This document shows, piece by piece, positions 2,856-43,595 of a DNA stretch of 64,000 nucleotides. Source of the stretch: Candidatus Levybacteria bacterium RIFCSPHIGHO2_01_FULL_37_17 (GTDB lineage Bacteria > Patescibacteriota > Microgenomatia > Levybacterales > UBA12049); contig MFNL01000001.1 of assembly GCA_001782035.1 (NCBI GenBank), positions 277,012-341,011 of the forward strand, written 5' to 3'. Within the stretch, counting starts at the first letter, position 1, and the number at the start of each line of letters is the position of its first letter. A program made the translations under genes and the position numbers. A model generated the notes under the pieces. That model ran no database searches. It was not told where the DNA came from and was given only the letters and a program-made list of their open reading frames with translations.

Positions 2856-2925
2856 CAGCTAATACTTTAGCAGAGAGTTTTCTTTTCTACAATAGGTTTT
2901 TTAAAATAGATTTGATAGAATAAAT

Positions 2926-17150: not shown

Positions 17151-18521
17151 ATGATATCATCAAGATTAATGAGTAGGGTTTTAGCCACAGATGCGAAGGA
17201 TTTTGTAGAAAAAGAAATATCTATAAAAGGGTGGGTAAGGTTAAGGCGAGATCACGGAAAGCTGATTTTTCTTGATATTAGGGATAGGAGTGGAATTATT
17301 CAGGTGGTGGTTAATCCTCAAGTTTCGCAATCTGCTTATAAAAATGCTCAAGCGCTGGGGGTTGAATATGCGGTTGAAATTAAAGGAAGAGTAAATAAAC
17401 GCCCGGAAAATTCCATTAATAAAGATCTAGAAAGCGGCAGAGTTGAGCTTGAGGCAACAGAAATAAAAATACTGGCTAAGGCTCCTGTTTTACCCTTTGA
17501 TATGGGAGGGGAAGATTTGAAACTTGAGCTGCCAACTCTTCTTGACCACAGGGGTCTGACTCTACGTCACCCTAAAATAGCCGCAATTTTTAAAGTCCAG
17601 GCAGTTATCATAGATGAGTTTAGAAATTATCTTAAAAGGGAGGGTTTTGTTGAGTTCCAGGCTCCTTCAATTGCTCCTGCGGTAGCTGAAGGCGGAGCTG
17701 CCGTTTTTGAGGTTGATTATTTTGGAAATAAAGCATATCTTTCCCAGAGCCCCCAGCTTTATAAGCAGATTGTAATGTCTGCATTCGAGCGCGTTTTCTC
17801 TGTAAATAAGGTGTTCAGAGCAGAACCCTCAGTTACTACAAGGCATTTGACCGAGGTGGTTTCTTTGGACGCTGAAATGGCATTCATAGAGTCTTGGGAG
17901 GATGTAAAGGATATGGCGCAGTCTACTGTTAGAACAATTTTAAAAAGACTTGAGAAAGAGTGCGCAAAAGAGCTTAAAATGTACAAGGTCGAGCTTCCTA
18001 AAATGATTGAAAAGACTCCATATTTAAGCCTTAGAGATGCCCAGGAAAAAATTTTCAAACATTCAGGCCGAGACGCGCGAGGCGAAAAAGACCTAAACCC
18101 TCAAGATGAGCGCGAGATTTGCGAAATAATCAAAAAGGAAACAGGCTCCGATTTTGTATTTATTTACGGATATCCAACAAAAGAGAAACCATTTTATGTT
18201 TATCCAAATCCCGACAATCCTGAGTATAACGAGGGCATGGATTTACTCTGTAAAGGTCTTGAGTGGGCATCAGGAGGCAGAAGGGTAAATGACTATGACC
18301 AGCTGATGGAGCACGTTAAAAAATGGAAACTTAACCCAGCCAAAATCAAGCTTTTTCTCGAAACATTTAAGTACGGAATACCTCCCGAAGGAGGATTTGC
18401 GTTGGGGGCAGAAAGAATGACTATGCAGATTTTAGAGCTGTCTAACGTACGTGAGGCTAGTATATTTCCAAGAGATATTGAAAGAATTGATGAAAGGCTT
18501 ACCTCTAAAAAAAGGTCCTAA
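17151..18521 (+). CDS. aspS: aspartate--tRNA ligase, archaeal/eukaryotic-type class IIb (AspRS; AsnRS not fully excluded)
   Basis: N-terminal OB anticodon-binding domain, class II motifs incl. FRAE and LSQSPQLYKQ; 456 aa; AGGAGG SD upstream. Confidence 0.75.
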   Translation: MISSRLMSRVLATDAKDFVEKEISIKGWVRLRRDHGKLIFLDIRDRSGIIQVVVNPQVSQSAYKNAQALGVEYAVEIKGRVNKRPENSINKDLESGRVELEATEIKILAKAPVLPFDMGGEDLKLELPTLLDHRGLTLRHPKIAAIFKVQAVIIDEFRNYLKREGFVEFQAPSIAPAVAEGGAAVFEVDYFGNKAYLSQSPQLYKQIVMSAFERVFSVNKVFRAEPSVTTRHLTEVVSLDAEMAFIESWEDVKDMAQSTVRTILKRLEKECAKELKMYKVELPKMIEKTPYLSLRDAQEKIFKHSGRDARGEKDLNPQDEREICEIIKKETGSDFVFIYGYPTKEKPFYVYPNPDNPEYNEGMDLLCKGLEWASGGRRVNDYDQLMEHVKKWKLNPAKIKLFLETFKYGIPPEGGFALGAERMTMQILELSNVREASIFPRDIERIDERLTSKKRS

Positions 18522-19422
18522 AGAGTTCTATAAAATTTATTCACTGATTTTATTTTCAATATTTCTTGTGCTTTTTTCTCTAAGTATAATACTTAAGTTT
18601 TGGATTATAAATTACTCAACTAACGATATTCCAATCAAACCTAGGGCCGACTTTAAGTACCCAGTGCTTAAGGCTGAGTTCAACCCGCAAATAAGCGCAA
18701 CCGGTGCAATTATCATGGACGGCAAAACAAAAGCACTTATTTACTCAAAAAATCCCAAATTAAGGTTTTCCCCAGCCTCGACTACTAAAATTATGACAGC
18801 AATAGTTGCCTTGGACAGCTTTAAGCTCAACGATATTTTGACCGTAAAAGAAGCAACTACTGAGGGCTCCATTCTTGGACTTTATCCCGGAGAGCAGCTT
18901 AGCTTAGAATCACTTCTCTACGCACTGCTTCTTCCCTCGGCCAATGATGCTGCTTTAACCATTGCTCAAAATTATCCGGGTGGAGAAAAGAAATTTATTG
19001 ATAAAATGAACGAAAAAGCAAAATTATTTATGCTTGAAAATACTCATTTTGGAGACCCGGCAGGACTTGAAGATAGCAAAAACTTTACTACCCCGTTTGA
19101 TTTAGCCAGACTTGCGTCGTTTGCGATGGAAAATTCTGATTTTGCAAAAATTGTTTCAACTCAGTACAAAATCATAACAGACATGAGTGGCGCTTCGGTT
19201 TATTTTTTGGAAAACTTAAACAAGCTTTTAGGCACAGATAACATAACAGGAATAAAAACCGGATACACACAGGAGGCAGGGCAGGTTTTAGTTATCTCAA
19301 AGGTTGAAAGCGGCAACACCATAATTTTGGTCGTTATGGGAAGTGAAGATAGATTCCTTGATACTCAGAAGCTCTTAAGCTTAATTAGTGGAAATCTTAC
19401 TTACTTATCCATTCATCCGTAA
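18490..19422 (+). CDS. D-alanyl-D-alanine carboxypeptidase (peptidase S11, PBP5/DacB-like)
   Basis: SxxK (ASTTK), SxN (SAN) and KTG (KTGYT) motifs in canonical order; ORF track start 18451, Met at 18490 chosen to reduce overlap with aspS. Confidence 0.8.
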   Translation: MKGLPLKKGPKEFYKIYSLILFSIFLVLFSLSIILKFWIINYSTNDIPIKPRADFKYPVLKAEFNPQISATGAIIMDGKTKALIYSKNPKLRFSPASTTKIMTAIVALDSFKLNDILTVKEATTEGSILGLYPGEQLSLESLLYALLLPSANDAALTIAQNYPGGEKKFIDKMNEKAKLFMLENTHFGDPAGLEDSKNFTTPFDLARLASFAMENSDFAKIVSTQYKIITDMSGASVYFLENLNKLLGTDNITGIKTGYTQEAGQVLVISKVESGNTIILVVMGSEDRFLDTQKLLSLISGNLTYLSIHP

Positions 19423-20482
19423 CTGCAGGTAAATAAGCAAGAAATCCATCATTTCCTTCAAATACTACGATAGGGTACAAATAATCTTGCTCTTTTTCAC
19501 CCATATAATATGCAAGAAAAATATCCTTAATTTTAATACTATTTCCGGCACCGTAATAGGATGCGATATATGCCTTGCCCTCTTTGAGTTCTTCAAAAGC
19601 AGCACCCGAAGTTTTTATTGGATATGTTGAGCTTTCGCCTGACACCCTTTGCATAGAATAATTTGCTCTTACTATTTGAGGGCCGTCAGTTCCGCCTGTG
19701 ACGATTAAATTAATATTAGATTCAATCGGTTTTCCATAAAATATGGGTAAATTATTTATATCCTTTTGATAAAAGTTAATTCTATAAGCCCGTGTGGAGC
19801 CTTGACTTGTAGCAGCAAGAAGCTGTCCGTCCTTTACGGAAAGCAATATGGTTCTGGTCTTAGACGTGTCTAAGTCACCGGTTGGATAGTTCATGTCGTA
19901 TAAGAAATCTCTTGCTTTACTTACCGCATCAGCCTGTTTAGGAAGGTTTTTGCCGGAAAGTACATCGCTTTGAAAATAAAATGGAGAAAACAGAGTAAAA
20001 TCACGACTTTTAATATTAACCCTTATAGTTTTTAAAAATTGTCCGCTGCTATTTGTCCAAAAATAAGAATCATCAGATACCTTAAAAGGACCATTTTCAA
20101 ATCCGACATTTTTAACGTCTTGACCAATTTTCTTTAATGCCAGAAGGTCTGCCTTAGGTTTTTCGATTTCATAAATTTTAATCTGGTCTTTAAACAGTGG
20201 AACTTTTCCCGAAATTGTATCAAGGGAATATTTATAATTTTCATTAACAGCAGAAGTCGGAAATGAGATAGCCGGAAGTTTTCCAAATGCTATCGTAGGC
20301 TTTGGAGGGGGAGTAGGAAAGAAAGTCTCTTTTAGAAGAACAAGAGCCCTATAGGCAAGTATTAATACAAAAATAGCCGCAACTACAATTCCTGCCCATT
20401 TTAGAATGAGTTTAGTTTCTTTGCTTGCAGCTGTTAAAGTGAGCATATATTGAGTATAAGAAAACTTTGAGCTACAATGCAA
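19397..20482 (-). CDS. hypothetical membrane-anchored extracellular protein
   Basis: N-terminal TM (IVVAAIFVLILAY) then ~300 aa soluble domain; alternative start MLTLTAAS at 20446. Confidence 0.45.
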   Translation of the reverse strand: MHCSSKFSYTQYMLTLTAASKETKLILKWAGIVVAAIFVLILAYRALVLLKETFFPTPPPKPTIAFGKLPAISFPTSAVNENYKYSLDTISGKVPLFKDQIKIYEIEKPKADLLALKKIGQDVKNVGFENGPFKVSDDSYFWTNSSGQFLKTIRVNIKSRDFTLFSPFYFQSDVLSGKNLPKQADAVSKARDFLYDMNYPTGDLDTSKTRTILLSVKDGQLLAATSQGSTRAYRINFYQKDINNLPIFYGKPIESNINLIVTGGTDGPQIVRANYSMQRVSGESSTYPIKTSGAAFEELKEGKAYIASYYGAGNSIKIKDIFLAYYMGEKEQDYLYPIVVFEGNDGFLAYLPAVTDEWISK

Positions 20483-20599: not shown

Positions 20600-21835
20600 A
20601 TGGTTAGAGTAAGGTTTGCACCAAGTCCAACAGGAATACAACATATCGGAGGAATAAGGACAGCGCTTTATAATTATTTGTTCGCGAAGAAAAATCAAGG
20701 AGAGTTTTTACTTAGAATCGAAGATACCGACCAAAAAAGGCTGATCAAAGAAGCAGAAGGGGCACTTCTTGAGATGCTTAGATGGCTTGAAATAGAGCCA
20801 AAAGGAAATATTGTCCACCAGTCAAAACGTCTTGATATTTATAAAAAATACGCAAAAGAGCTTGTTTCAAAAGAACTAGCTTATGAAAAAGATGGCGCAA
20901 TCTGGGTTAAAATGCCGGAAAGTAAGAGCTTTGAATGGACTGATTTAGTAGGAAACAAGCATATTAGATTTGAGGGAAAAGATCAAAAAGACTTTGTGAT
21001 TTTAAAATCCGACGAATTTCCGACCTATCATTTTGCAAATGTAGTCGACGACCACTTATTTGAAATAACACACGTTTTTAGAGGCGAAGAATGGATATCA
21101 TCTACTCCTAAACACCTGTATCTATATGAAAGTTTTGGATGGAAAAGACCTGAATTTGTTCATCTCCCTGTAATTTTAGGAAGCGATCATACCAAGCTTT
21201 CCAAAAGACATGGTGCAAAATCAGTTTTGGATTACAGGAGTCAAGGTTATTTAAAGGAAGCTGTACTAAATTACATGGCGCTTCTTGGTTGGAATCCGGG
21301 TGGGGACAGAGAAAAAATGAGCCTAGATGAGATGATTGAGCTATTTAAGATAGACCATATTAATAGTGCAAATCCTATTTTTGATCAAACTAAATTTGAA
21401 TGGCTAAACGGTGTTTGGATACGCAGTATTTCGACAAAAGACTTGCAAGAAAGACTAATTGAGTTCTACTCAGATGATAAAGAGGTTACAGAAACTCTTA
21501 AAAGTTCAAAATCGCCTGATTTAGTAAAGGTTGCAGCCTCAAGAATGAAAACCTTGATGGATTTCAAAAGTTTGGTTTCTAAAACTTCTCAAAGAGAAAA
21601 AACTCGGGAGGAAATTAAAATAGCGAAAAAACTAAAAACATTTTTGACCCAAAATCTAAAAACATGGGAAGACGCAGAGCTGCTTAATGCAATAAAGGAA
21701 TTTAGTAAAGAAGAAGATATTCCATTTAAGACAATTTTTTTCCTGCTAACCGGAAAGGAACAGGGAATTGGAATTTTAGAGTTAAATCAAATCTACGGAA
21801 AAGACTTTTTGATATCAAATTTAGAGGGCAAATAA
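20600..21835 (+). CDS. gltX: glutamate--tRNA ligase (short form, 411 aa)
   Basis: HIGG (HIGH) motif in RFAPSPTGIQHIGGIRTAL, KLSKR (KMSKS) motif; C-terminal anticodon-binding region shorter than canonical ~470-490 aa. Confidence 0.9.
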   Translation: MVRVRFAPSPTGIQHIGGIRTALYNYLFAKKNQGEFLLRIEDTDQKRLIKEAEGALLEMLRWLEIEPKGNIVHQSKRLDIYKKYAKELVSKELAYEKDGAIWVKMPESKSFEWTDLVGNKHIRFEGKDQKDFVILKSDEFPTYHFANVVDDHLFEITHVFRGEEWISSTPKHLYLYESFGWKRPEFVHLPVILGSDHTKLSKRHGAKSVLDYRSQGYLKEAVLNYMALLGWNPGGDREKMSLDEMIELFKIDHINSANPIFDQTKFEWLNGVWIRSISTKDLQERLIEFYSDDKEVTETLKSSKSPDLVKVAASRMKTLMDFKSLVSKTSQREKTREEIKIAKKLKTFLTQNLKTWEDAELLNAIKEFSKEEDIPFKTIFFLLTGKEQGIGILELNQIYGKDFLISNLEGK

Positions 21836-22318
21836 AAGAACTGCTATCCCAAGAAGAACTATAGCTATTCCACCGATTCCAAGGCCAAGTATTGTAGCGT
21901 TGGGTCCAGCTTCTGGTAAGCCTGCTGCGCTTGCCAAATTAGTGCTCACGGTACTTGACCAAGGACCGGTTGCGCAGCCATTAGTTGCCAACACCTTAAA
22001 AAAATAGTTTGTTTTAGGGAATAAGTCGTTTACTTTGTATTTAACAGCCCCATCAATTTTTCCCATACTAAACTTTACTGAATACGCATCTGCGCTAGAT
22101 GTTAGACCATACGATATTACATAACCATCAAAAGCAGATGTTGGCTGGACAAAGTATAAAGTTGCAGATGAAGAGCTCATAGAAACAGAGTAGAGATTTG
22201 GAGCATCTGCAGGTGGAGTTGCTGAGCATTCTTGTGCAAAAGAAAGCTTGGGAGATAGCCCTGCTAAGGATATTAAGGTGATTAGAATAAATCCGAAGGC
22301 CAAAAACTTAAATTTCAT
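21821..22318 (-). CDS. secreted fibronectin-III-like protein with C-terminal LPEAG plus hydrophobic anchor
   Basis: Signal peptide MKFKFLAFGFILITLISLAG; FN3-like strand pattern (YVISYG...NYFFKVLATNG); C-terminus LPEAGPNATILGLGIGGIAIVLLGIAVLLFAL; start trimmed to Met with signal peptide. Confidence 0.5.
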   Translation of the reverse strand: MKFKFLAFGFILITLISLAGLSPKLSFAQECSATPPADAPNLYSVSMSSSSATLYFVQPTSAFDGYVISYGLTSSADAYSVKFSMGKIDGAVKYKVNDLFPKTNYFFKVLATNGCATGPWSSTVSTNLASAAGLPEAGPNATILGLGIGGIAIVLLGIAVLLFAL

Positions 22319-22461: not shown

Positions 22462-22710
22462 ATGTGGCACGTTTACATTTTAAGAAGTAAAATTAAGAGA
22501 TGGTATTACGTAGGAAGTACAAATAGGCTTCAAAAGAGAATTCTCGAACATAATTCAGGTAATACTGTCTCAACAAAAGCGTATAGACCTTTTGACTTGA
22601 TATTTAATAAAACTTTTAAATATGAAATTGATGCAAGAAAATACGAAAGAAAACTTAAAGACAAAAGAATAGAAAAAGAACAAATAATAAAAGAAACTGA
22701 AGACAAATAA
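22462..22710 (+). CDS. GIY-YIG nuclease family protein (82 aa)
   Basis: VYILRS...RWYYVGSTNRLQKRILEHN is the GIY-YIG catalytic module; lies between the tRNA-fragment repeat and intact tRNA-Gln. Confidence 0.85.
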   Translation: MWHVYILRSKIKRWYYVGSTNRLQKRILEHNSGNTVSTKAYRPFDLIFNKTFKYEIDARKYERKLKDKRIEKEQIIKETEDK

Positions 22711-26491: not shown

Positions 26492-27070
26492 TTATCGGGC
26501 TATAATCAGAAGTCGTTTGTAGGTTGTGCCTGCGGGCCAGCAAGTCATTAAGGTAAGGGTTTTTTCTCCTGGTTTAGGATTAAGGTAGGAAACATCTTTA
26601 GCGTCCACTATTTTTGTGTCAATTACTTTATATTCATACCTTATATTTTTGTAATAAACAAAAATCTCATCATCCTTTTTAAGTTTTGAGAGTAAATAAA
26701 ATACTGAGTTGTATCTTGTAGCTTCTAAAATATTGACGGATGAATGGGAAAACAAAAACATGTTGCCAAGTTGACTTGGTAAGGCAGTACCCCTTGCTTG
26801 GGCAACTCCTTTTGTTAAGGCAAGCTGATAAGTATTGGAATTGTAAGGATCTACGTTTGCAACAATTTTGGCATTTGCCCCGATTTTGGGTATTACAATT
26901 CCAAATTCTTTATCAAGAGGTTTTATTTGACTAATCGTTTTTTTAGGCTCGTTAAGTCTATAATTAATTTCTACTTTTGCAACGGGTGCAAATATATAAA
27001 TTAAAAGCACAAGAGAGGAAAATATTAAAATTATTCCTGCACCAATTAGAATTTGGGGAAGTTTCTTCAC
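26492..27070 (-). CDS. sortase (transpeptidase)
   Basis: N-terminal TM anchor, catalytic His in FLFSHSS, TLMTC catalytic Cys motif (TLxTC) and downstream Arg. Confidence 0.8.
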   Translation of the reverse strand: MKKLPQILIGAGIILIFSSLVLLIYIFAPVAKVEINYRLNEPKKTISQIKPLDKEFGIVIPKIGANAKIVANVDPYNSNTYQLALTKGVAQARGTALPSQLGNMFLFSHSSVNILEATRYNSVFYLLSKLKKDDEIFVYYKNIRYEYKVIDTKIVDAKDVSYLNPKPGEKTLTLMTCWPAGTTYKRLLIIAR

Positions 27071-27081
27071 AAGAATTATTT

Positions 27082-28050
27082 TTATTGAGTATTTCTATTG
27101 CGGTAAACGTAATAGGCAATTGCGGCAATAAGTATAAGAAGAGAAAGTGCTAGAATCCAATTTTTTGCAATCCAATTCATGGGTGCAGTTAAAGGATTTT
27201 TAGACATCTCTTCTGATTCTTCGGGCTCTGATGGTTGTGCACTTTCTGTTGCCAAGACTTCTCCACCTTGGCCTGTTGCTTCTGCTCCCTCTCCTAAAAC
27301 CGAACCCGTACCAGTTCCCCCTACAGGGATAGCTCCTTGCGTAACAGTCGTTGTCGGGTTGACTATTGTAGTAGTAACATTTGAATCTCCTATAACACCT
27401 GAGCCGTTTCCATAGGTATCGAAGGCTCTAATAACATAATAATATGTAGTATTACAATTTGGCGAAACGTTATCTGTCATGCTTCCATCGGTATTTGAGC
27501 CTATATTGACACTGTTTACTTGATGAGCTGAGTCAACGTTAAAGCTTGTATCAGAGGATCTATATAAATTCACCTTCACAGTTTTTCCGCCATCATCTGC
27601 TGTTCTAAACGATATTTTATAGGTACAATCATCCTGCTTTGATTTACTATAATTAGTTGGAGTTCCTGGAGTAGAATTGTTGAAATCTGTACTTACTGTT
27701 GAGCTTGTTGAGCTTGAAGTTCCTTGTGCAGTTGCATAAAAGCTATACGTACCGTTTCCTTGATTTAAAGAAACGTCGCATGTGTCTGTATTCCCACCTG
27801 CTGAGGTTACAATGTCGCTTCCAAATTGCGAGAAGCTGCCGCTATCACCCGGACCTGATTTAAAACATTTAACCGTAATAGTCTGTGAGGAATCTGTATC
27901 AAGAGCAACGAATGTTAATGTAAATGAGTCATCGTTTGTTTGGCTTGGGGGAGTCTGAAGTCTTACTGAAGTTGCAGCAAAACTTGTCCCAACAAAGACA
28001 AACAATGCAAAAATTGAAAGCAATAATGATTTAATTATCTTATTTTTCAT
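27082..28050 (-). CDS. secreted Ser/Thr-rich surface protein with two FN3-like domains and C-terminal hydrophobic anchor plus basic tail (putative sortase substrate)
   Basis: Signal peptide; FN3 patterns (TYSFYATAQG; TYYYVIRAFDTYGN); C-terminus ...NPLTAP...WILALSLLILIAAIAYYVYRNRNTQ. Confidence 0.55.
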   Translation of the reverse strand: MKNKIIKSLLLSIFALFVFVGTSFAATSVRLQTPPSQTNDDSFTLTFVALDTDSSQTITVKCFKSGPGDSGSFSQFGSDIVTSAGGNTDTCDVSLNQGNGTYSFYATAQGTSSSTSSTVSTDFNNSTPGTPTNYSKSKQDDCTYKISFRTADDGGKTVKVNLYRSSDTSFNVDSAHQVNSVNIGSNTDGSMTDNVSPNCNTTYYYVIRAFDTYGNGSGVIGDSNVTTTIVNPTTTVTQGAIPVGGTGTGSVLGEGAEATGQGGEVLATESAQPSEPEESEEMSKNPLTAPMNWIAKNWILALSLLILIAAIAYYVYRNRNTQ

Positions 28051-31000
28051 ATCTTTTCTTTAATCTAAGTCCTAAAAGCAAGCTTCCTGTTCCAGTGCCC
28101 AGTAATAGAGCTGCCATTATAACCCAAATCGTATTTTCTCCAGTAGCAGGTAGTTCAGTAGATGCTCCCAAAACCTCCTGGGTCGCTTTATACTCGGCGC
28201 TTGGTTGGCTAGTGTTAACAAGTGAAACTTCTGTTCCGACAAAATTGCTATCCGGGTCTGCCGTATCCAAGTCTCCAGGGTTAACCGCAAGCGCCAAAAT
28301 CAGGCTTGATGGATCTCCGATGGGTGTGCCCTTAGCCCATGCATTATCATAGTATGTTCCGGCTGCTTGCCCGCTGCCTATTGTAGCTTTGTATATTAAA
28401 GTGAATACGTCGCCCGGATTTGCACTACCAAGAGTCCACGTTCCGGGAGATGCATACGTAGGCTCACTTATACTTCCGGTTATATCGGTTGTTGCTCCTA
28501 AATATGGTGTATAGAGAACTTGGTACGAACCACCATTATAAGAGAATCCATCAGGAAGAAGATCGGTAGCCGTTATATTGTCTCCCGGTCCTTGATCTGG
28601 ATCAACTGTTAAGGTCAATGTGTATGTAACAACGTCTCCAGTATTTTTATCCCCAACTGCATCATTTTCCTTAGAAATCGTGAGAAGAGGTTCAGCGTTA
28701 TGATTAAGGATTTGGCAAAATACTGTTTGTCCAGAGCTAACGAAAAGATCAAGCGTATCGTCTTCGTTTATCGCTACTTCTTGACCACAGCTAATTGCAG
28801 TTTGTTCCCATCCATCCTGTAAATTTTCGCCTAATGTGTATGTTCCTGGAATAAGATTATTAAACGTCACTGTTCCAGTAGGATCTGTTAGTTGTGAAGT
28901 TTGTCCTGTTAAATTTATTGTCCAGTCCGAAAGAACAGGATCTTCTCCTTCTAATAGTCCGTTTCCATCTTCATCATTGTATTTCGTAACAATAACTTGA
29001 CCTTCCTGTGTATTAATAAAGGTATAAGACTCATTTTGTCCGCTCGTGGGTGTTTCAAAATCGTGCGTTGAATCATTTAATGGCGTCCATCCATCTCTGT
29101 CTTCTTCGGTTACAGAATAATTATGATTTGGTCCAAGATTTGTAAATGTGTAGCAGCCGTCTTCTCCGGTCGTTTGCGCACTTCCACTTGCAACACCGTC
29201 TACATTAAGTGTCATTTCCCATCCTTGTACATCACTTTGGTCTTCGTCCGTCTCTGGATCTCCGTCAACATCTTCCACCTTACATACAGTAATGTCGATA
29301 TTTTTAAAGTTGACAAAATCTTGTCCCGTAATTGTATCTCCGGCAGTAAGAGTAATGTTATAAAAAAGAGAAGTTAATGCTGTCCATCCAGCTTGAAGCA
29401 CCTCTCTTACCTGATAATAATCTGGGATAAGGTCAGTAAAGCTATAAGAACCATCAGAAAGAGTATTTGTTGTTAAGTAGAAAACACAGCCAATAAAATC
29501 GAATCCACAATTGTTGTAAAGATCAATCACCCAATTTTCAAGTCCAGTTTGATCTCCTGTTGTGTCCGTGTCGCCATCGGCATCTTCAAATTTAGACCCC
29601 AAGACTGAGCCCAGCTTGGTATTATATATTGTGCACTCAGCTGTTTGTCCTGAGGCAACTGCTACTTCCTGACAATCGCTTTCATCTTCGCTCCACCCGG
29701 ATTGTGCCTCCTCATTAACGTCGTATGTCCCTGGTGTGACTGTGAAAGACTCTGAATGGTTTGTAGCAAGCGTTGTTCGGGTTGCCGGAGCAGTTATTGT
29801 TCCAGATCCAGTTGCAGTAATGGTGAATTCGGTTAGATCATTGGTCGGATCTGTAACTTTATGAACAATTAAAGTCCCGTTGTCGATCGCATTACAAATA
29901 GTAATTTCATTAGTTTCACCGGGTTCAACCTCAATCACTGCCGGTAATGTATGATAAGCCGCTGGTTCAGGAAGGCTCTCACAACTATAGTCTTGGTTTG
30001 AAGGGAACCATCCAACAAAGTGGTAACCGGAAACGCTACTCTCATCAACTGAGTGTTCTCCTGGCTCAACATCGTTAACTGGAGAGCCCATTGTGTTAGT
30101 ACCTGACCCATCAAGGCTCCAGCTAAATCCTAACCCATCTGCTTCTGTATTTTCATCATCAGTAGATCCCTCATCGCTAAATCCGTTGGCATTTCCGTCT
30201 ACAATTTTATTTACCTTAACCGAGCCTGTTTCTGGCTCACAACCGTTGAGATCAATCGTTGCGCTATCTGAATTATTAGAGGTTGTTCCCTCTTCTGTAG
30301 CAGCACTAACACTGACCTCATTTATTAAAGCCGGACAATCATCCTCGGTTGTCACTCTTGTAACGGTATAAGTACGGCTTCCAGATACTCCAAGATCAAT
30401 ATTGGTACATTGGAAACTTCCAGTTGCGTTTTGATCACAAGCTGAGCCGCCTGTATAGTTTACAGCCCAGGTTCCGGGTGGAAGAATATCGTCAAGAACA
30501 ACATCGTTTATACTTTCGCCTCCGACAGAAGAAACGACGATTGTAAATTGGGCCGAATCTCCGACATTGATTGGTCCGTTCCCCACTTTCGTAACTTCGA
30601 CATCTTTACAAGCGAGAGTTATACTTTGTGAGTCAGAGTTATTTGCACTATTACCATCATTTAAGACGGTAATTGTTGCCGTATTATCAATTACACCACA
30701 GTCATCAATATCAGTAGTAGCTTTTACTTGAATTGTCTTTGAGGCTCCAGAGGCTAAGCTGTTGATAGTGCAAGTAAGGAGGTTTCCAACGATAGTACAG
30801 CTTGTCCCCGTAGGAAATCCACTCGCTCCGTCCTCTTCCCAAACTAATCCGCTTGTACCACTTGGAAGATTGTCGGTAAGAGTAAAATTTCCGCTAGCTT
30901 GATCACTTTCATTCTTAACAATTATGTTGTAATGTGCAACAGCCCCTGCACTTATACTTGCATCATCAGCTGTTTTATTTACGCTTACGTCAATGCAGTC

Positions 31001-32122
31001 TTCGACTGTAATCTTATTGTTATTGTCGGAAGCATTAAGTGTATTTCCGTTTCGACTATTAATTGCGGTGGCGCTAGCGTCGTTTGAGATTACTCCGCAG
31101 AATCCGGTCGTATCTTGACTTACGGTAATCGTCTTTGTTTGTCCTTTTGGCATATCGCCAAAGTTACAAGTTAAAAGATTGCTGCCGTTGATACTACAAG
31201 AAGCTGCATCAGCTCCTCCTAAAGTCCAAGAACCGACTGGGAGCTGGTCTGTCAAAACTACGTTTTGGGCCGTTGTGCCAGTGGCGCTTGCATCTGTGTC
31301 TACTGATATCGTGTATGTTGCTGTATCACCTGAATTAATGGTTGAATCCGCAGCTGTCTTGGTTACGTCGATCTTTGCGTCTGTGTCAGTAAAGGTGATA
31401 GATGCAACTAAAATATTTGAAGAATCAAAAACCTCAACTTTATAGTTCAACCTCTCGATCCCGTCCAGCTGATAAGCGTAAATAAAACTTCCTTCCTCAT
31501 TCGAATTAACATCATCTTCAAAATGTACAGGGGGAAGATCTTCAGAAGATATAATTATTTTGTAAGTAGTATTGGGAAAAAAGTTTCTACCGGTGATAAA
31601 AACAGCATCATCTGGAAAATAATCAGCCTTATCTGTAACAAGACTTGCGCTTTTTTCAGAAGTTAATATCGTGTCGCTATTTAAAAGCTCTGAGGAGCCG
31701 GAATTTATTGATTCTGCGGAAACATTATCAAGTATTACCATGTTAAGTTCTGTATTTAAATCTGTTTGTTCCAGCTCTGAACCTGAAGAGGCTTGATTTT
31801 CTAAGGCACTTGTTGACGAAGGAGGAGACAGATTGTCAACCTGAGTAGTATCGTTAGCGGTTGGTGAATCAGTCGGCTCTTGTGAAACAGTTTCTGATTG
31901 CGTGTCGCTTGGTGTGGGGGTAATTGTGTGTGTCGGTGTACCTTGCTCTACAACGGGAGTTGGAGTTGGTGCATCCGTTGGTGTTGATTGATCAACCGTT
32001 TCGGCGGGTGTTTCAGTTGTCGTTACTTCTTGGGCAGAAACCACATAAGGACTAATCGATTGGGCAATAAGCGATAATACTGCGACAAAAACAATAAATT
32101 TTTTAATTAATGTTTGTTTCAC
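28040..32122 (-). CDS. giant LPXTG-anchored cell-surface protein / adhesin (1360 aa) with repeated DUF11-like and Cna-B/SpaA-like beta-sandwich domains
   Basis: Signal peptide MKQTLIKKFIVFVAVLSLIAQS; T/P-rich linker; repeated ...VxKTAxxxxIxxGxxAxYxIxVxN...LxDxLPxG and GxYxFxxLxPGxYxxxE modules; C-terminus LPATGE plus hydrophobic stretch plus RLKKRYEK. Confidence 0.8.
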   Translation of the reverse strand: MKQTLIKKFIVFVAVLSLIAQSISPYVVSAQEVTTTETPAETVDQSTPTDAPTPTPVVEQGTPTHTITPTPSDTQSETVSQEPTDSPTANDTTQVDNLSPPSSTSALENQASSGSELEQTDLNTELNMVILDNVSAESINSGSSELLNSDTILTSEKSASLVTDKADYFPDDAVFITGRNFFPNTTYKIIISSEDLPPVHFEDDVNSNEEGSFIYAYQLDGIERLNYKVEVFDSSNILVASITFTDTDAKIDVTKTAADSTINSGDTATYTISVDTDASATGTTAQNVVLTDQLPVGSWTLGGADAASCSINGSNLLTCNFGDMPKGQTKTITVSQDTTGFCGVISNDASATAINSRNGNTLNASDNNNKITVEDCIDVSVNKTADDASISAGAVAHYNIIVKNESDQASGNFTLTDNLPSGTSGLVWEEDGASGFPTGTSCTIVGNLLTCTINSLASGASKTIQVKATTDIDDCGVIDNTATITVLNDGNSANNSDSQSITLACKDVEVTKVGNGPINVGDSAQFTIVVSSVGGESINDVVLDDILPPGTWAVNYTGGSACDQNATGSFQCTNIDLGVSGSRTYTVTRVTTEDDCPALINEVSVSAATEEGTTSNNSDSATIDLNGCEPETGSVKVNKIVDGNANGFSDEGSTDDENTEADGLGFSWSLDGSGTNTMGSPVNDVEPGEHSVDESSVSGYHFVGWFPSNQDYSCESLPEPAAYHTLPAVIEVEPGETNEITICNAIDNGTLIVHKVTDPTNDLTEFTITATGSGTITAPATRTTLATNHSESFTVTPGTYDVNEEAQSGWSEDESDCQEVAVASGQTAECTIYNTKLGSVLGSKFEDADGDTDTTGDQTGLENWVIDLYNNCGFDFIGCVFYLTTNTLSDGSYSFTDLIPDYYQVREVLQAGWTALTSLFYNITLTAGDTITGQDFVNFKNIDITVCKVEDVDGDPETDEDQSDVQGWEMTLNVDGVASGSAQTTGEDGCYTFTNLGPNHNYSVTEEDRDGWTPLNDSTHDFETPTSGQNESYTFINTQEGQVIVTKYNDEDGNGLLEGEDPVLSDWTINLTGQTSQLTDPTGTVTFNNLIPGTYTLGENLQDGWEQTAISCGQEVAINEDDTLDLFVSSGQTVFCQILNHNAEPLLTISKENDAVGDKNTGDVVTYTLTLTVDPDQGPGDNITATDLLPDGFSYNGGSYQVLYTPYLGATTDITGSISEPTYASPGTWTLGSANPGDVFTLIYKATIGSGQAAGTYYDNAWAKGTPIGDPSSLILALAVNPGDLDTADPDSNFVGTEVSLVNTSQPSAEYKATQEVLGASTELPATGENTIWVIMAALLLGTGTGSLLLGLRLKKRYEK

Positions 32123-32297
32123 TCAAGCAAAACCCTCATCCATCCAAATTTAGATGTCGCGATAGTACCACCAACAGTAATAAAGTACAATACCCTATAG
32201 TAGTAATAAAACAAAGGCAATTTTATAGACCTATAGCTATGTTTCAAGACGTTTAAATTTGACAATATTATTATTGTTTGGTAGTATTTTTTTAACA

Positions 32298-36858: not shown

Positions 36859-37614
36859 GTGGATAATGTTTATTTAAGCGTTGTTATTCCCTCATATAAC
36901 GAAATCGCAAATCTTCGGAAAGGGACACTAGATAAGGTCCAGCACTTTTTGGAAAAGCAAACTTATTCTTATGAAGTATTAATTGTTGATGATGGCTCAA
37001 CAGATGGAAGCTTAGAGTTTGTAGAAAAGTTCATATTGGAAAATCCCAAGTTCAAAATATTGAAAAATCAGCATTTGGGAAAAGCAGGTGCAGTTACCTC
37101 GGGCATGCTAAATGCAAAAGGAGAACTGCGCCTTTTTACAGATATGGACCAGGCAACTCCGATTGAGGAAGTTAATGAGCTGACCCCTTTTACTAAAAAG
37201 GGATACGACGTGGTAATTGGCTCAAGAAGTTCGCATAGAGAAGGTTCTCCCCTGACTCGTCAATTCATATCATTATCCGCAATACTGTTGCGAAGAGTAC
37301 TCGTTGGCTTGAATGAAATATCGGATACCCAATGCGGATTCAAGTTGTTCACAAGAGATGCGGCAGATTTGCTTTTTAATAAAATAAGCGATATTCATCA
37401 TGGTTTCCATAAGATATCGGGCTCTGCAGTTACAGCAGGTTTTGATGTTGAGCTTTTATATTTAGCAAAAATTGAAGGTTTAAAAGTTAAAGAAGTTCCG
37501 GTCGACTGGCTATATGTTGAGACAAGAAGAGTGAGTCCAGTATCAGATTCTGTTAATGGGTTCTTAGATTTTGTAAGAATAGGTATTAATAGATTTAGGG
37601 GTAAATATAGATGA
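36859..37614 (+). CDS. GT2 glycosyltransferase, Dol-P/Und-P-sugar synthase-like (DPM1/GtrB-like)
   Basis: LSVVIPSYNE...VLIVDDGSTDGS, DxD (TDMD), soluble 251 aa. Confidence 0.8.
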   Translation: MDNVYLSVVIPSYNEIANLRKGTLDKVQHFLEKQTYSYEVLIVDDGSTDGSLEFVEKFILENPKFKILKNQHLGKAGAVTSGMLNAKGELRLFTDMDQATPIEEVNELTPFTKKGYDVVIGSRSSHREGSPLTRQFISLSAILLRRVLVGLNEISDTQCGFKLFTRDAADLLFNKISDIHHGFHKISGSAVTAGFDVELLYLAKIEGLKVKEVPVDWLYVETRRVSPVSDSVNGFLDFVRIGINRFRGKYR

Positions 37615-38816: not shown

Positions 38817-40331
38817 ATGGGTTTTATCCGCAAATGGAGAACTGAAATCATTTTTGCGTTGCTTATTGCAGTAGCTTATTTTCTCTCCCGTATTGTACTT
38901 CTTGGTAATCTCCCTATTTTTACAGATGAGGCAATTTACACTAGATGGGCTCAAATAGCATTAAACGATCCCCAGTGGCGTTTTATTTCCCTAACAGATG
39001 GAAAACAACCGATGTTTGTTTGGCTAGCCATGATTTTTATGAAATTTATAGAAGACCCGCTAGTTGCCGCAAGGCTTGTTTCGGTTGCCTCAGGCTTTTT
39101 TACTCTAGTGGGACTTTGGTTTTTAACCTTAGAGCTTTTTAAAAGTAGAAAGGTAGCGTTTATCTCCTCGCTTCTTTATGTCGTCTATCCTTTTGCCGTA
39201 GTGCTTGACCGCATGGCACTATACGACAGTATGGTAGCAACATTTTTTGTTTGGGCGCTTTATTTCTCAGTTCTTTTAGTAAGAAGAATTAGACTAGATA
39301 TTGCCTATACGCTTAGTTTGATTATTGCAGGAGGAATGCTGACTAAAACCGCTAATTTCTTCAGTATATATCTGCTTCCTTTTTTGCTGATCCTTTTTAA
39401 CTTTAGAAAAAAGAATTGGCAGTTTGATTTGAGAAGATTTGTTTTATTTGCCGCTTTCTCAGCTGGCATAGCTTTTTTCTTATACAATGTTTTGCGACTT
39501 TCCCCATTTTTCCATATTATTGATCAAAAGAATGCCGTTTTCGTTTATCCATTCTCAGAGTGGATAAAGCAGCCATTTACTTTTTTCCCTGGAAATCTTT
39601 CAGGACTACTTAACTGGTTGTATGAGTATTTAAAAATTCCAGTCATTGTTTTAATCTTGATTTCACTTGTAAAGTATAAAGAGTTTACGAGAGAGAAATT
39701 ATTGCTTCTTGTTTATTTCTCTGCGCCATTTATTGCGTTGGCCCTCTTTGGAAGACTGGTTTACCCTCGTTATATTTTCTTTATGAGCCTAATGCTTCTT
39801 CCTCTTGCTTCTTTGGGTCTTACATATCTTGTTGATTACGTCATTAAGAAGTATAAAGTTTCAAAAAATTTAGCTTTTTACTTAATCACTGCATTGTTTA
39901 TTGCATATCCTGCTTTTGTTTCATGGCAGTTTATTTTTGATCCTGTAAACGCAAGAATAGCAACAGCGGATAACAGGCAGTATGTAAATGGTTGGCCCGT
40001 CGGATGGGGAGTTAGGGAAAGCGTTGAGTTTTTCAGAAATGAAGCAAAGAACGAAAAGATTTACGTAGCAACAGCTGGAACTTTTGGGCTTCTTCCGGCA
40101 GCTTTAGAGATATATTTAGTTGAGAACAAAAATATTGAGATAAAGGGGCACTGGCCGGTAGATGTATTGCCTAAAGAACTTTTGCAAAAGGCAGAAGATA
40201 TGCCTACCTTTTTAATTACATATCAGAAAGAAAACTTAAATCTAGACGATAACCCAAATTTAAATCTCGTGTTTCAGATAAGACAGGGAAACACAGACTT
40301 TTTTTATAAGGTATTTAGGGTAGAACCATGA
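38817..40331 (+). CDS. ArnT/PMT_2-like GT-C glycosyltransferase (GT39/GT83-like)
   Basis: First extracytoplasmic loop FTDEAIYTRWAQIAL (DE motif), 504 aa polytopic. Confidence 0.65.
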   Translation: MGFIRKWRTEIIFALLIAVAYFLSRIVLLGNLPIFTDEAIYTRWAQIALNDPQWRFISLTDGKQPMFVWLAMIFMKFIEDPLVAARLVSVASGFFTLVGLWFLTLELFKSRKVAFISSLLYVVYPFAVVLDRMALYDSMVATFFVWALYFSVLLVRRIRLDIAYTLSLIIAGGMLTKTANFFSIYLLPFLLILFNFRKKNWQFDLRRFVLFAAFSAGIAFFLYNVLRLSPFFHIIDQKNAVFVYPFSEWIKQPFTFFPGNLSGLLNWLYEYLKIPVIVLILISLVKYKEFTREKLLLLVYFSAPFIALALFGRLVYPRYIFFMSLMLLPLASLGLTYLVDYVIKKYKVSKNLAFYLITALFIAYPAFVSWQFIFDPVNARIATADNRQYVNGWPVGWGVRESVEFFRNEAKNEKIYVATAGTFGLLPAALEIYLVENKNIEIKGHWPVDVLPKELLQKAEDMPTFLITYQKENLNLDDNPNLNLVFQIRQGNTDFFYKVFRVEP

Positions 40332-41977
40332 AATTTCTAAAAAAGAATTTATTGCTTGTACTTCTTTCCTTAATTTTTGCTCTAAGTCTTTTTTTAAGGC
40401 TTTATCAACTAGAGTCTTTTCCAGTTGGATTTCACCAGGATGAAGCAGCCTTAGGTTACAACGCATATTCACTTCTTTTAACAGGGAAGGATGAAAATGG
40501 ACAAAGTTTACCATTGTACATCAATAAGTTTGGTGATAATAATCCCAGCGGATATCATTATCTAGCTATTTTATCTGTAAAATTTTTTGGACTTAATGAG
40601 TTTTCTACCAGGCTTCCCGCAGCTCTTGCGGGGGCAATGCTTATTCTAGCAATATATTTTCTTAGCTTTACAATTTCTAAAAACACCTTGATTAGTTTGT
40701 TTGCCGCTTTTTTTAGTGCCGTTGCCCCATGGAGCATAGTGCTTTCTCGAACTAGTGCTGAAACAATAGTTGCATTATTTTTTGCAATATTAGGTTTTGC
40801 TTTATTTATTCATTTTTTTAGAAACAAGAACATTTTATTTTTATCCGGAAGTGTTTTGTTGTGGATAGCATCGTTTTTAACATATCCAGCACCTCGTTTA
40901 TATGTACCTCTTTTAGTTTTAGCAACGGGAATATATGTATTTAAATATATAAGAGAGAAAAAATTACTAGTACCTTCGTTTGTTTCTTTCACAATACTTA
41001 TTGCTGTTCTTCTATTTCTTATTCTAGGAGTATCAGGAGGTATCGGTCGATTCTCTCAGGTAAGTATATTTACCCATCCTGAAACGAAGCTTGTTTTAGA
41101 AGAGCAAATCAGAGAAGACGGAATGGAGCAAATTCCTCCAACAGTTGTTAGAGCTTTTCACAATAAAATTATCAATCATTCTTATACATTTTTACTAAAT
41201 TATTCTTCTTATTTTTCCCTGGAGTATCTTTTCTTGAAAGGCGGACAACCATTACTCCTTAACGTGCCCCACATAGGGCTATTGTATTTAGTAGAGCTGC
41301 CTTTCATATTAATAGGAATTTATTCAGTAATAAGATCGAAAAATCACTTCTCCAAGCTTCTTTTGATTTGGCTTCTGCTTGCTCCAGCTACTGCAGCTAT
41401 AACATTTGATGATAGTCCAAATGTAAGAAGGGCTTTGGTAATGTTTCCTTTTATAGAAATTCTTGCAGGATACGGAATGCTTTTTTCTATTAAAAAAATT
41501 ACAGAAGAGAAGAATAAAAAAATATTTATTTCTATCTTTATGTTATTTCTTCTGTACAATTCTGTATATTTCCTACATCAATATTTTGTTCACACAAAAG
41601 TTCATAAACCATGGTTTAGAGATGTTGGAGTAAAAGAGATGGTAGCGGAGATAAAAAATTCATATCAAAACTATGACAAAGTTATTGTCACAAATGCTAC
41701 TAGAGGAATACATCCTTTAATCCTCTTTTACATGAAATATGATCCTGTGACGTATCAAAAAGAAGGTTCAGCCAAAGACGCGGATTATAGCGGATTTGGA
41801 AAATTCTTTTTTGTTCCACAGGACTGCCCGTCAGTAAATAGGGATCCTGATTTTCCTGATTTTAAATCTGCAATTTTTATAGATAAAGGAGTCTGCCCGT
41901 TTATTGAGGGGAAAAACTACGAAATAATATATCGAGGTGATAAAACCCCCGTGTATAGAATTGTCTATGAAGATTAA
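40328..41977 (+). CDS. ArnT/PMT_2-like GT-C glycosyltransferase, paralog A1
   Basis: GFHQDEAALGYNAYSLLLTGKDENGQSLPLYINKFGDNNPSGYHY loop-1 motif; 549 aa. Confidence 0.75.
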   Translation: MKFLKKNLLLVLLSLIFALSLFLRLYQLESFPVGFHQDEAALGYNAYSLLLTGKDENGQSLPLYINKFGDNNPSGYHYLAILSVKFFGLNEFSTRLPAALAGAMLILAIYFLSFTISKNTLISLFAAFFSAVAPWSIVLSRTSAETIVALFFAILGFALFIHFFRNKNILFLSGSVLLWIASFLTYPAPRLYVPLLVLATGIYVFKYIREKKLLVPSFVSFTILIAVLLFLILGVSGGIGRFSQVSIFTHPETKLVLEEQIREDGMEQIPPTVVRAFHNKIINHSYTFLLNYSSYFSLEYLFLKGGQPLLLNVPHIGLLYLVELPFILIGIYSVIRSKNHFSKLLLIWLLLAPATAAITFDDSPNVRRALVMFPFIEILAGYGMLFSIKKITEEKNKKIFISIFMLFLLYNSVYFLHQYFVHTKVHKPWFRDVGVKEMVAEIKNSYQNYDKVIVTNATRGIHPLILFYMKYDPVTYQKEGSAKDADYSGFGKFFFVPQDCPSVNRDPDFPDFKSAIFIDKGVCPFIEGKNYEIIYRGDKTPVYRIVYED

Positions 41978-43595
41978 AAAGCATTTCTTATTCCTTCTTT
42001 TAATTCTTGCCATAGCTTCAATATTGCGTCTATGGCAACTGGGAGTAAATCCTCCGAGTCTTGATTGGGACGAAGCCTCACTGGGTTACAATGCCTATTC
42101 AATTCTTAAGACCGGAGCAGATGAATATGGGAATTTTCTTCCAACTTCCATAAGGTCTTTCAATGATTATAAACCTGCAGCATATGTATATTTAACAATT
42201 CCATCTGTTTTTATATTCGGGCTCAACGAATTTGCCGTTCGTCTTCCGTCCGCAGCCTTGGGGATACTAACTGTTCTTTTCACATATCTTTTAGTCAAAG
42301 AACTATTCAAAGCTAAAAATTTACAATTTGCCGAAGCCGCAGCGCTTGTCAGCGCATTGCTACTGGCAATTTCTCCCTGGCATCTACAATTTAGTAGGTC
42401 AGCTTTTGAAGGAAACGTTGGGGTTTTCTTTTTTGTCGGAGGAATATATTTTTTACTTAAAGCTTTAAATAAAGGATTATTTTTTGCGCCTGCTTTTATT
42501 TTTTTCGTACTTACTTTTTACTCCTATCATAGTTTTCGGTTGGTAACTCCATTGTTTCTGTTGTTTTCCATATTTTATTTTAGAAAGGAAATATTGGAGA
42601 AAAAAAAGCATTTTCTTGTTTCCGCACTGTTTGCCTTGATCTTAACCCTGCCTTTATTGCTTAGTATTTTTACCAACTTAGCCCGTTTTTCAAGCGTTAC
42701 CATTTTTAATTCTTCAGGAATTCTCGATACATCTATAAAGCAGCTGGAACTAGATAGAGAAAGAGAAAATGTTCTTGGAGAGATTTTCCATAACAGAAGA
42801 GTGGTCTACGCGCAGAACATTTTAGATGGCTATCTTTCACATTTTGATCCTGTTTTCCTTTTTCTAAGGGGAGATTCGGTGGAACGGCATCATGCAATAG
42901 GAATGGGAATGCTTTATATAATTGAACTTCCATTTTTACTAGTGGGAATTTTTTATCTTTCGCGAAAAAAAGATACCGGAAGGCTTATTTTACTCATCTG
43001 GCTCTTAGCTGCACCTGCCGCAGCTTCCTTAGCAACGGGGACTCCCCATGCAATACGCGCTATTGCCATGATTCCTGTATTGCAAGTTATTACGGCTATT
43101 GGCATTGTCGCTTTCTACGAGTGGAATAAAAAGGCAAAATTAGGAAAATTTATTATTTTTACATTTTCCGCTTTGTTTTTATTAAATGCTCTTTACTATT
43201 TGGATATGTATTATGTCCACACACCTATTGAAAATTCAAAATACTGGCAATATGGATACAGACAAGTGTTTGAATATGCAAAGGAAAGGCAAGATAAGTA
43301 TGACAAAATAATCGTAACTTACAAATACGACCAACCATACATCTATTATTTGTTTTTTAATAAAATTGAACCGTCTTGGTACCAGAAGAATTGGGATTAT
43401 AACAATGATGGAGAAATAGAAAGAATGACCAGAATTATCGGAAAATACGAATTTAGAAATATTGATTACGCAGTAGATTCAAAGGCAAAAAATGTTTTGT
43501 TAATCGGGACACCTGATGAGATATCGCAGAATGCAAGCATAAAAGAAATAAATTTTTTGGATGGAACCGTTGCATTTAGGATAGCAGAAAGTTAA
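41967..43595 (+). CDS. ArnT/PMT_2-like GT-C glycosyltransferase, paralog A2
   Basis: LDWDEASLGYNAYSILKTGADEYGNFLPTSIRSFNDYKPAAYVY; start set at ATG overlapping upstream stop (ORF track 41937). Confidence 0.75.
   Translation: MKIKKHFLFLLLILAIASILRLWQLGVNPPSLDWDEASLGYNAYSILKTGADEYGNFLPTSIRSFNDYKPAAYVYLTIPSVFIFGLNEFAVRLPSAALGILTVLFTYLLVKELFKAKNLQFAEAAALVSALLLAISPWHLQFSRSAFEGNVGVFFFVGGIYFLLKALNKGLFFAPAFIFFVLTFYSYHSFRLVTPLFLLFSIFYFRKEILEKKKHFLVSALFALILTLPLLLSIFTNLARFSSVTIFNSSGILDTSIKQLELDRERENVLGEIFHNRRVVYAQNILDGYLSHFDPVFLFLRGDSVERHHAIGMGMLYIIELPFLLVGIFYLSRKKDTGRLILLIWLLAAPAAASLATGTPHAIRAIAMIPVLQVITAIGIVAFYEWNKKAKLGKFIIFTFSALFLLNALYYLDMYYVHTPIENSKYWQYGYRQVFEYAKERQDKYDKIIVTYKYDQPYIYYLFFNKIEPSWYQKNWDYNNDGEIERMTRIIGKYEFRNIDYAVDSKAKNVLLIGTPDEISQNASIKEINFLDGTVAFRIAES

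Follow-up and report, generated by a model that had tools for sequence, protein, structure and literature searches.

The stretch of DNA analysed here, a 64-kb window from a Candidatus Levybacteria genome (Microgenomates/OP11, candidate phyla radiation), carries three co-linear genes on its minus strand. These encode a large adhesin-like surface protein, here called big, a smaller membrane protein, p322, and a sortase. All three open reading frames (ORFs) are where an earlier note on this DNA had placed them, with an overlap of 11 nt between big and p322 and a gap of 11 nt between p322 and the sortase gene. The sortase operon with a giant, canonical LPXTG surface protein described in that note is real and is supported by the ORFs, the profile matches and the motifs. 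What the note missed is that big, p322 and the sortase gene, in that order, are a fixed module, often encoded as a polyprotein with the sorting signal in its middle. The features of the module in the window are listed below, with TM for transmembrane, FN3 for fibronectin type III, Ig for immunoglobulin and pLDDT for the predicted local distance difference test score.

28040-32122 (-): big, gene for a 1360-aa secreted surface protein, from the ORF, Pfam and NCBIfam
32033-32122 (-): putative signal peptide of big, about aa 1-30, ending between VVSA and QE, read from the sequence by eye
28157-28174 (-): VLGAST extension directly upstream of LPATG, nearly all orthologs having (E/Q)VLGAST(E)
28139-28153 (-): LPATG, putative sortase cleavage motif of big, aa 1324-1328, kept in orthologs
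28043-28138 (-): hydrophobic segment (aa 1329-1352) and basic tail RLKKRYEK (aa 1353-1360) of big
28040-28050 (-): 11-nt overlap of big and p322, ATGAAAAATAA, predicted translational coupling
27082-28050 (-): p322, gene for a 322-aa protein with a signal peptide, two FN3/Ig-like domains, a disordered Thr-rich stalk, and a TM helix with basic tail
27679-27972 (-): FN3-like domain 1 of p322, aa 27-124, from AlphaFold2; Cys62 and Cys91 conserved at or near 100%
27364-27657 (-): FN3-like domain 2 of p322, aa 132-229, from AlphaFold2; Cys142/Cys199 and a RAFDxYGNGSG loop
27196-27348 (-): disordered stalk of p322, aa 235-285, pLDDT < 50
27286-27303 and 27241-27261 (-): VLG-type motifs of the p322 stalk, SVLGEG and the VLA variant EVLATES
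27184-27198 (-): NPLTA, p322 aa 285-289, not conserved in the family
27085-27159 (-): TM core (aa 298-316) and basic tail RNRNTQ of p322; AlphaFold2 helix at aa 288-321
26492-27070 (-): sortase gene, 192 aa, from Pfam/NCBIfam and AlphaFold2
26990-27052 (-): N-terminal TM anchor of the sortase, aa 7-27
26744-26746, 26540-26542 and 26513-26515 (-): putative catalytic residues His109, Cys177 and Arg186

The module was compared across 80 related loci (L001-L080) found in a genome scan, which comprise about 1.3 Mb of ORFs and come from Levy-, Davies-, Gottesman-, Collier-, Pace-, Shapiro-, Roizman- and Woesebacteria. Homologs of p322 are present in 79 of these loci, of big in 76 and of the sortase in 75, without exception arranged as big, p322, sortase along a single strand, with missing genes at contig ends. 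The p322 and sortase genes are -226 to +54 nt apart in the 76 loci with an adjacent sortase, and within 75 nt either way in all but five. Elsewhere between 14 and 44 kb of the window, genes have homologs in 0 to 7 of the 80 loci. Since the flanking genes recur so rarely, the three genes appear to be a mobile but indivisible unit. A wider sample of the p322 family was drawn from databases. A database search returned 179 homologs, the C-termini of 194 non-redundant sequences were analysed, and a profile search against 1.84 billion representatives identified 1222 members of the family, of which 507 had E <= 1e-30. For gene fusions, the 145 new top hits of the profile search were surveyed as independently called database proteins.

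The big protein has each of the parts that the earlier note had read in it: a signal peptide (again judged by eye), a perfect LPATG, a hydrophobic stretch and the RLKKRYEK tail. Its N-terminus is rich in Thr and Pro. The protein matches the Pfam families DUF11 (four copies), SpaA, SpaA_2 and SdrD_B, which are prealbumin-like, and the NCBIfam isopeptide-forming fimbrial domain TIGR04226. The C-terminus runs up to the sorting motif as ...EVLGASTELPATG and ...QEVLGASTELPATG, continues through the hydrophobic stretch ENTIWVIMAALLLGTGTGSLLLGL and ends with the basic tail; the extended signal around LPATG is VLGASTELPATGEN and VLGASTELPATG. Motif, hydrophobic segment and positive tail thus stand at the extreme C-terminus in the pattern of an LPXTG cell-wall sorting signal. 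In the orthologs the motif is LP[A/S/G/E/Q/D]TG, or rarely MPxTG, and their consensus is (E/Q)VLGAST(E)LP[A/S/G/E/Q/D]TG followed by a TM helix and R(R/K)KY(A/E). Chance hits aside, among all ORFs of the related loci convincing LPXTG-type signals are found in the big orthologs only, one per locus. These orthologs span 535 to 3070 aa, a spread that fits a fast-evolving modular adhesin. There is no YPK or PK[NT] pilin motif in the 1360 aa of big, and no relative of its sequence was found among solved structures.

Some otherwise conserved signals depart from the LPxTG form, in fused ORFs (L021, L029, L030 and L043) and in database representatives P0347 and P0406. MPATG or MPSTG is present in a Shapirobacteria-like clade, FPATG occurs once, and in one representative the LP is missing (EVLGAATGTNTTW).

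The assignment of the third gene as a sortase with a TLMTC active site, made in the earlier note, holds. TLMTC is at aa 173-177, the protein matches Pfam PF04203 (3e-24; 85.6 bits, cut-off 26.6) and TIGR01076 (54.1 bits, cut-off 39.35), and H109, C177 and R186 are invariant in an alignment of 27 homologs. The AlphaFold2 model (pLDDT 81) has a helix at residues 4-39 followed by the beta strands of a sortase barrel, and its Foldseek matches in the PDB are all sortases, with E-values down to 5.6e-10. The protein is 100% identical to an NCBI entry labelled 'hypothetical protein A2798_01770'.

Classification of the enzyme within classes A-F, which the earlier note had proposed, was carried out with profiles and structures, and the enzyme fits no curated class. 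The class C model NF033745 gives 67.3 bits against a cut-off of 160, and the 27 family members match it weakly, the best at E = 3.4e-21; for all 27 it is the best-scoring class model, followed by SrtD/class D. The other NCBIfam models are likewise far below their cut-offs (class D, 61 against 165 bits; SrtD, 63 against 140; class E, 39.5 against 160; class F, 14.7 against 166; class GN, 29.9 against 158). Class A and B models are absent among the matches listed, with none for class A at E <= 0.001. Structures of classes C, A, D and E are nearly equal as Foldseek neighbours (E 6e-10 to 3e-8), and in a PDB sequence search the best match is the class D enzyme of C. perfringens, 4d70, followed by class C enzymes, all of them weak. 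An assignment to any of classes A-F or GN was therefore rejected. A class C lid is absent, there being about 16 residues between the TM helix and beta1, and the DPY at aa 74-76 is after beta2, which is not the position of a lid. Nor is there a C-terminal TM helix, as the protein stops 6 residues past Arg186. Because the lid, the C-terminal TM helix and a YPK motif in big are all missing, the sortase is filed outside the curated classes A-F and GN, and not as a class C enzyme.

One related locus (L073:10966-12168) has two tandem sortase genes downstream of p322. The first of these reads TLMTTYPPGT, with the Cys replaced by Thr, and may be an inactive paralog, judging by this substitution.

The p322 protein was described in the earlier note as having two FN3-like domains, and the predicted fold bears this out even though Pfam fn3 does not match it. 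The AlphaFold2 model has a pLDDT of 80 overall, with two beta-sandwich domains at about 90 or above, and its top Foldseek matches in the PDB are tandem FN3 pairs (integrin beta4, Ihog and RbmA, E about 1e-7). At the level of sequence, p322 has no match in Pfam, NCBIfam or the PDB, no relative with a solved structure was found, and Pfam fn3 matches 0 of 31 family members. Each of the domains carries a conserved Cys pair. The one near-invariant Lys of the protein, Lys136, is 97% conserved in 327 sequences and ends an element P128-G-x-P131-x-N-Y-x-K136 at the start of the second domain.

The C-terminus of p322 does have a hydrophobic anchor and the basic tail RNRNTQ after NPLTA, as had been noted. 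The proposal that NPLTA is a non-canonical sorting signal does not survive comparison with the family. Its context in the window is MSKNPLTAPMNW, in which NPLTAPMNW runs toward the TM helix. A TM helix with at least two basic residues is found in 190 of the 194 C-termini. NP is present before the TM helix in 66 (34%) and in none of the other 128; NPxT[G/N/A/S] is present in seven, and NPLTA in just one, the window copy itself. LPxTG is also found once, a chance match, since close relatives have APVAG or APSSG there. The closest relatives have QNP[V/I/L]-[A/S/T]-x-x-x-NW..THKK before the TM helix, for example QNPVADITNW, QNPVSNAISW and KNPLTQSANW, and distant members are without the QNP element altogether. 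A SrtB/SrtD-like signal was rejected on the conservation in the family: A, S and T interchange freely at the Thr of the would-be scissile bond, in close relatives too (QNPV[A/S/T]x), and the element is missing from two thirds of the family. On these alignments NPLTA is best seen as an ordinary chance sequence and no new sorting signal. Because it is not conserved while the TM helix and basic tail are, the best reading of p322 is a type-I membrane protein anchored by its own TM helix. The earlier note had offered a choice between one sortase for all motif variants and different anchoring of the variants; the former does not stand, and for p322 the comparative data favour the latter.

The big and p322 genes are closely coupled. 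Of 43 unfused loci, 27 have the ATG of p322 overlapping the stop codon of big by exactly 8 nt (ATGnnTAA), and the AGG AGA or AGG AGG Arg codons of the basic tail sit 6-8 nt upstream of this ATG as a Shine-Dalgarno sequence. In most unfused relatives the AGGAG(A/G) codons of the adhesin tail therefore serve twice (28040-28066 in the window). This double role probably explains the conserved adhesin endings ...RRKY[A/E] and ...RRLHA.

In 31 of the 80 loci, big and p322 are a single ORF with no stop codon between them. Big runs in frame via its complete sorting signal and the p322 signal peptide to the C-terminus of p322, as verified for L054 by direct translation, in which ...GEVLGASTSLPATGGNALWVILASILSFFGLIFMVLGLLLKKKNFNFKIFGKALTVFIVGLAFVLVVPTSANA is joined directly to ANLSVRLEQPKSP.... 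Among the 145 database representatives, 91 are fused, with up to 3052 aa and the p322 module C-terminal, and in 85 of these 91 an internal VLG..[L/M]PxTG and TM helix are just upstream of the p322 module. In the sortase tree the fused state makes up one major clade and one or two isolated cases, which requires about 5 parsimony changes, at least two of them probably contig-end truncations. An artefact of assembly or gene calling was considered and rejected, given 31 loci from many independent assemblies, 91 independent proteins and one major clade. The topology of the fused proteins is coherent. The LPxTG is outside, the first TM helix passes from outside to inside and the basic loop is cytoplasmic; a signal-peptide-like helix with an AxA site then leads from inside to outside, the FN3 domains are outside, and the final TM helix passes from outside to inside. 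With this topology, the two parts could be split by sortase and signal peptidase.

The VLG motif that precedes the sorting signal is also found in the partner protein. Both big and p322 carry about one G(E/Q)VLG within their final 90 aa, against 0.02 per protein in other ORFs, an enrichment of about 50-fold. The motif is present in 192 of the 194 p322 C-termini, usually twice, in the disordered stalk. A short conserved motif, disordered and common to substrate signal and partner, suggests recognition by a common factor, which might be the sortase, a protease or a glycosyltransferase. Some further proteins that are encoded near the module and predicted to lie at the surface have (K/Q)VLG 40-60 aa before a hydrophobic anchor (L012:5540-6961, L070:1158-2600 and L077:35-1750). 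Since these surface ORFs are unrelated, VLG may instead serve in general in the stalks, the processing or the glycosylation of Microgenomates surface proteins and not be specific to the module. The p322 stalk was also considered as a decayed sorting signal, with VLG-x(3-6)-P in register with VLGASTxLP. This was rejected as the Pro is conserved only in the Levybacteria clade; a Pro within 13 residues is absent from 190 of 316 family sequences, a count from a pattern that also matched xLG within TM helices and is confounded to that extent.

A further FN3 protein encoded in the window was regarded in the earlier note as a paralog of p322. Its features are as follows.

21821-22318 (-): 165-aa secreted protein with a single FN3 domain, ending in AAGLPEAGPN and a hydrophobic C-terminus
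21905-21919 (-): LPEAG of this protein

The described ending, LPEAG plus a hydrophobic segment with no basic tail, is confirmed, and the FN3 domain is a Pfam fn3 match (1.5e-8). A relationship to p322 is not detectable (BLASTP E = 1.2), and the protein was rejected as its paralog. In 21 homologs, which are from Levybacteria wherever the source gives a name, the family motif [S/N]LP[E/V/A]TGP is found before the hydrophobic C-terminus. The motif is LPxTG in 17, LPEAG in 3 (window copy included) and LPEVG in 1, and none of the 21 has basic residues after the hydrophobic segment. As the family carries LPxTG in 17 of 21, LPEAG is a T-to-A variant of an LPXTG-type motif. From its motif, the family is plausibly a sortase substrate of unusual form, and the window LPEAG copy may be impaired as a substrate. 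The gene is unlinked to the sortase module in relatives and travels with gltX, a gene of 349 aa of unknown function and a D-Ala-D-Ala carboxypeptidase gene.

Taken together, the data probably describe a self-contained Microgenomates surface-display module, in which a dedicated sortase would cleave the adhesin between Thr and Gly of LPATG and attach it to the wall, with p322 as a TM-anchored partner. All three proteins would be exported or inserted by Sec, and the adhesin would stay membrane-bound through the hydrophobic segment and basic tail at its C-terminus. The sortase, through Cys177, His109 and Arg186, would then cut the Thr-Gly bond in VLGASTELPATG and pass the adhesin to an amine, for which a peptidoglycan precursor would be the default acceptor, as in Gram-positive bacteria. 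A D-Ala-D-Ala carboxypeptidase gene at 18451-19422 (+; Pfam 1.4e-51) indicates that peptidoglycan metabolism is present. We infer that p322 would be no substrate of the sortase and would remain a type-I protein of the membrane, anchored by its own TM helix and the basic tail after it. The start/stop overlap or gene fusion would keep its amount in a constant ratio to that of the adhesin, with which it would act at the cell surface. In the fused relatives, the two proteins would be released from each other by sortase cleavage at the internal LPxTG and by signal-peptidase cleavage past the internal signal peptide. Chemically, the reaction is almost certainly that of an ordinary sortase.

Several points weigh against this account. 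The big signal is just under the cut-off of TIGR01167 (15.8 against 15.9 bits) and below that of Pfam Gram_pos_anchor PF00746 (13.8 against 20). Simple wall anchoring would not account for an obligate p322 beside the sortase, nor does it assign a role to the VLG motif common to the adhesin signal and the p322 stalk. In addition, the view is limited to 64 kb of the genome, and further sortases or substrates may be present elsewhere.

It is possible, though unlikely, that p322 is itself the covalent acceptor, with the Thr carboxyl of the adhesin LPAT joined to the epsilon-amine of Lys136 in the manner of a pilin motif. A two-part adhesin would then be tethered by the p322 TM helix instead of, or before, attachment to the wall. 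The strict co-inheritance and repeated fusion of the three genes would suit this, as would the near-invariance of Lys136 within P-G-x-P-x-N-Y-x-K, the G(E/Q)VLG common to adhesin signal and p322 stalk, and the pilus-type class C enzymes that are the nearest profiles and structures of the sortase. However, class C membership itself fails, on score and on the missing lid and C-terminal TM helix, and the adhesin has no YPK pilin motif. Lys136 is in a seemingly ordinary FN3 A-strand, where it could be structural, and peptidoglycan is there as a conventional acceptor. A broader form of the idea, an undescribed assembly of a surface organelle in which the sortase resolves a polyprotein or coupled pair and ligates the adhesin to Lys136, with G(E/Q)VLG as docking element, is given a similarly low chance.

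For p322 to be an accessory factor of the sortase reaction is a decidedly improbable reading. As a scaffold or pseudo-substrate it would dock on the sortase by its VLG stalk, and so position or regulate the enzyme relative to the adhesin or to sites of wall synthesis. Its gene does always abut the sortase gene, and the G(E/Q)VLG of its disordered stalk is the same motif that precedes LPxTG in the substrate. However, characterised sortase systems offer no precedent for this, a few unrelated surface ORFs also have VLG ahead of their anchors, so that it is perhaps a general stalk, glycosylation or processing motif, and the two well-folded, disulfide-bearing FN3 domains are more suggestive of a displayed surface protein. 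The least probable of these explanations is a promiscuous sortase that also processes p322 between Thr and Ala of NPLTA, like the NPxTx or LPxTA signals of SrtB and SrtD, and the small FN3 protein between Ala and Gly of LPEAG. It would draw on the sorting-signal-like hydrophobic segment and basic tail of p322, on QNP[V/I/L] at the equivalent place in close relatives, and on the conserved LPxTG-type motif of the small FN3 family. Against it, NPLTA is unique to the window among the 194 C-termini, and even NP is mostly missing before the TM helix. Position 4 is A, S or T about equally often, position 5 is unconstrained, and the element stands some 10 residues ahead of the TM helix, with HKK among these residues in close relatives. 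In LPEAG the nucleophile-accepting Thr has been replaced, and a charged tail is absent.

Other features of the window surround the module. A single promoter-like sequence is well placed for it.

32220-32247 (-): promoter-like TTGAAA-16-TAAAAT, about 100 nt upstream of big; weak, since the number of such sites in the region equals chance expectation

Apart from this one site, a scan of the region for promoters and terminators gave counts at chance expectation.

A large surface-glycosylation island is near the genes for these Ser/Thr-rich surface proteins, at 892-6586 and 36859-63984. Six PMT/PMT_2-type GT-C paralogs belong to it (4988-6586, 38817-40331, 41937-43595, 58278-59936 and 59920-61581, along with what are probably further ones, about 550 aa long, that Pfam does not match), as do a flippase (48977-50431), YfhO (54334-56634) and two membrane proteins of the PTPS_related family (45036-48277). 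There are also GT2 enzymes at 3879-5009, with a GtrA domain, and at 36859-37614, and three GDP-mannose-dehydratase/epimerase genes at 892-3882. From this gene content, O-glycosylation of the stalk proteins is plausible.

A gene at 19397-20482 (-) encodes a 361-aa protein with an N-terminal TM anchor and no family match. It is conserved beside gltX, the small LPxTG-type FN3 gene and the D-Ala-D-Ala carboxypeptidase gene in Levybacteria contigs L081 and L082, and this group may be a small conserved envelope gene neighbourhood. Between the small FN3 gene and the module, at 22462-22710 (+), is an 82-aa ORF that by eye resembles a GIY-YIG-type nuclease (MWHVYILRS...YYVGST...HN) and has homologs in 2 of the 80 related loci.

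The module resembles known sortase systems in different respects. It shares with the paradigm of S. aureus SrtA a tripartite LPATG signal, a membrane-anchored sortase with a His-Cys-Arg triad and TLxTC, and the presence of peptidoglycan enzymes. The enzyme here, however, is below every class cut-off, with no class A match at the threshold above, and has a single dedicated substrate encoded alongside it, with a VLGAST extension, a third conserved gene in p322, and a signal that can sit inside a polyprotein. In the class C pilus operons (C. diphtheriae SpaA-SrtA and A. oris FimA-SrtC2) a sortase is likewise found with large proteins of isopeptide-domain type (TIGR04226, SpaA-type), and class C is the nearest profile and nearest structural match of this enzyme. 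Unlike those systems, the module has no lid or C-terminal TM helix in its sortase, which scores 67 bits against 160, no YPK in its adhesin, and one LPXTG gene, the second protein being TM-anchored without LPXTG. In Proteobacteria the class GN, or 'marine', sortase (TIGR03784) has one dedicated target and an OmpA-like partner, according to the NCBIfam/TIGRFAMs descriptions. By description this is similar, a sortase beside one dedicated LPXTG-type target and a conserved third protein, but with 29.9 bits against 158 there is no family-level homology, and the partner, lineage and envelope type differ.

Within the Microgenomates, the sortase family fam000526 has been reported as near-ubiquitous (Meheust et al. 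2019, PMC6744442), and the window sortase very probably belongs to it. The passages of that paper on fam000526 are concerned with presence and absence and do not include a substrate, a p322 partner, a module or fusions. A Microgenomates genome paper, where it touches on the enzyme, records merely the presence of a sortase (PMC7143001). In a literature search, no title or abstract described the substrate, the p322 family, the module or an internal sorting signal. New here are the architecture of three parts, the extension of the signal and the encoding as a polyprotein. We know of no report of a sorting signal in the middle of a polyprotein for sortase substrates.

These results propose a substrate for the Microgenomates sortase, which on the evidence of its sequence would be one giant, fast-evolving, adhesin-like protein per locus, and define VLGASTxLPxTG as its likely extended recognition signal. 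They add p322 as an obligate third component, a new Pfam-less family of tandem-FN3 membrane proteins with about 500 clusters at 50% identity, and show repeated cases of substrate and partner joined in a single polyprotein around an internal sorting signal. The natural LPxTG variants could chart the specificity of this sortase clade, and a minimal, lid-less sortase of about 150 residues with an extended motif could interest protein-ligation engineers. Were ligation to Lys136 true, the product would be a two-part adhesin tethered to the membrane of bacteria living attached to other cells. To our knowledge, the host-attachment machinery of ultra-small episymbiotic bacteria is largely unknown, and the module is a concrete, testable candidate for it.

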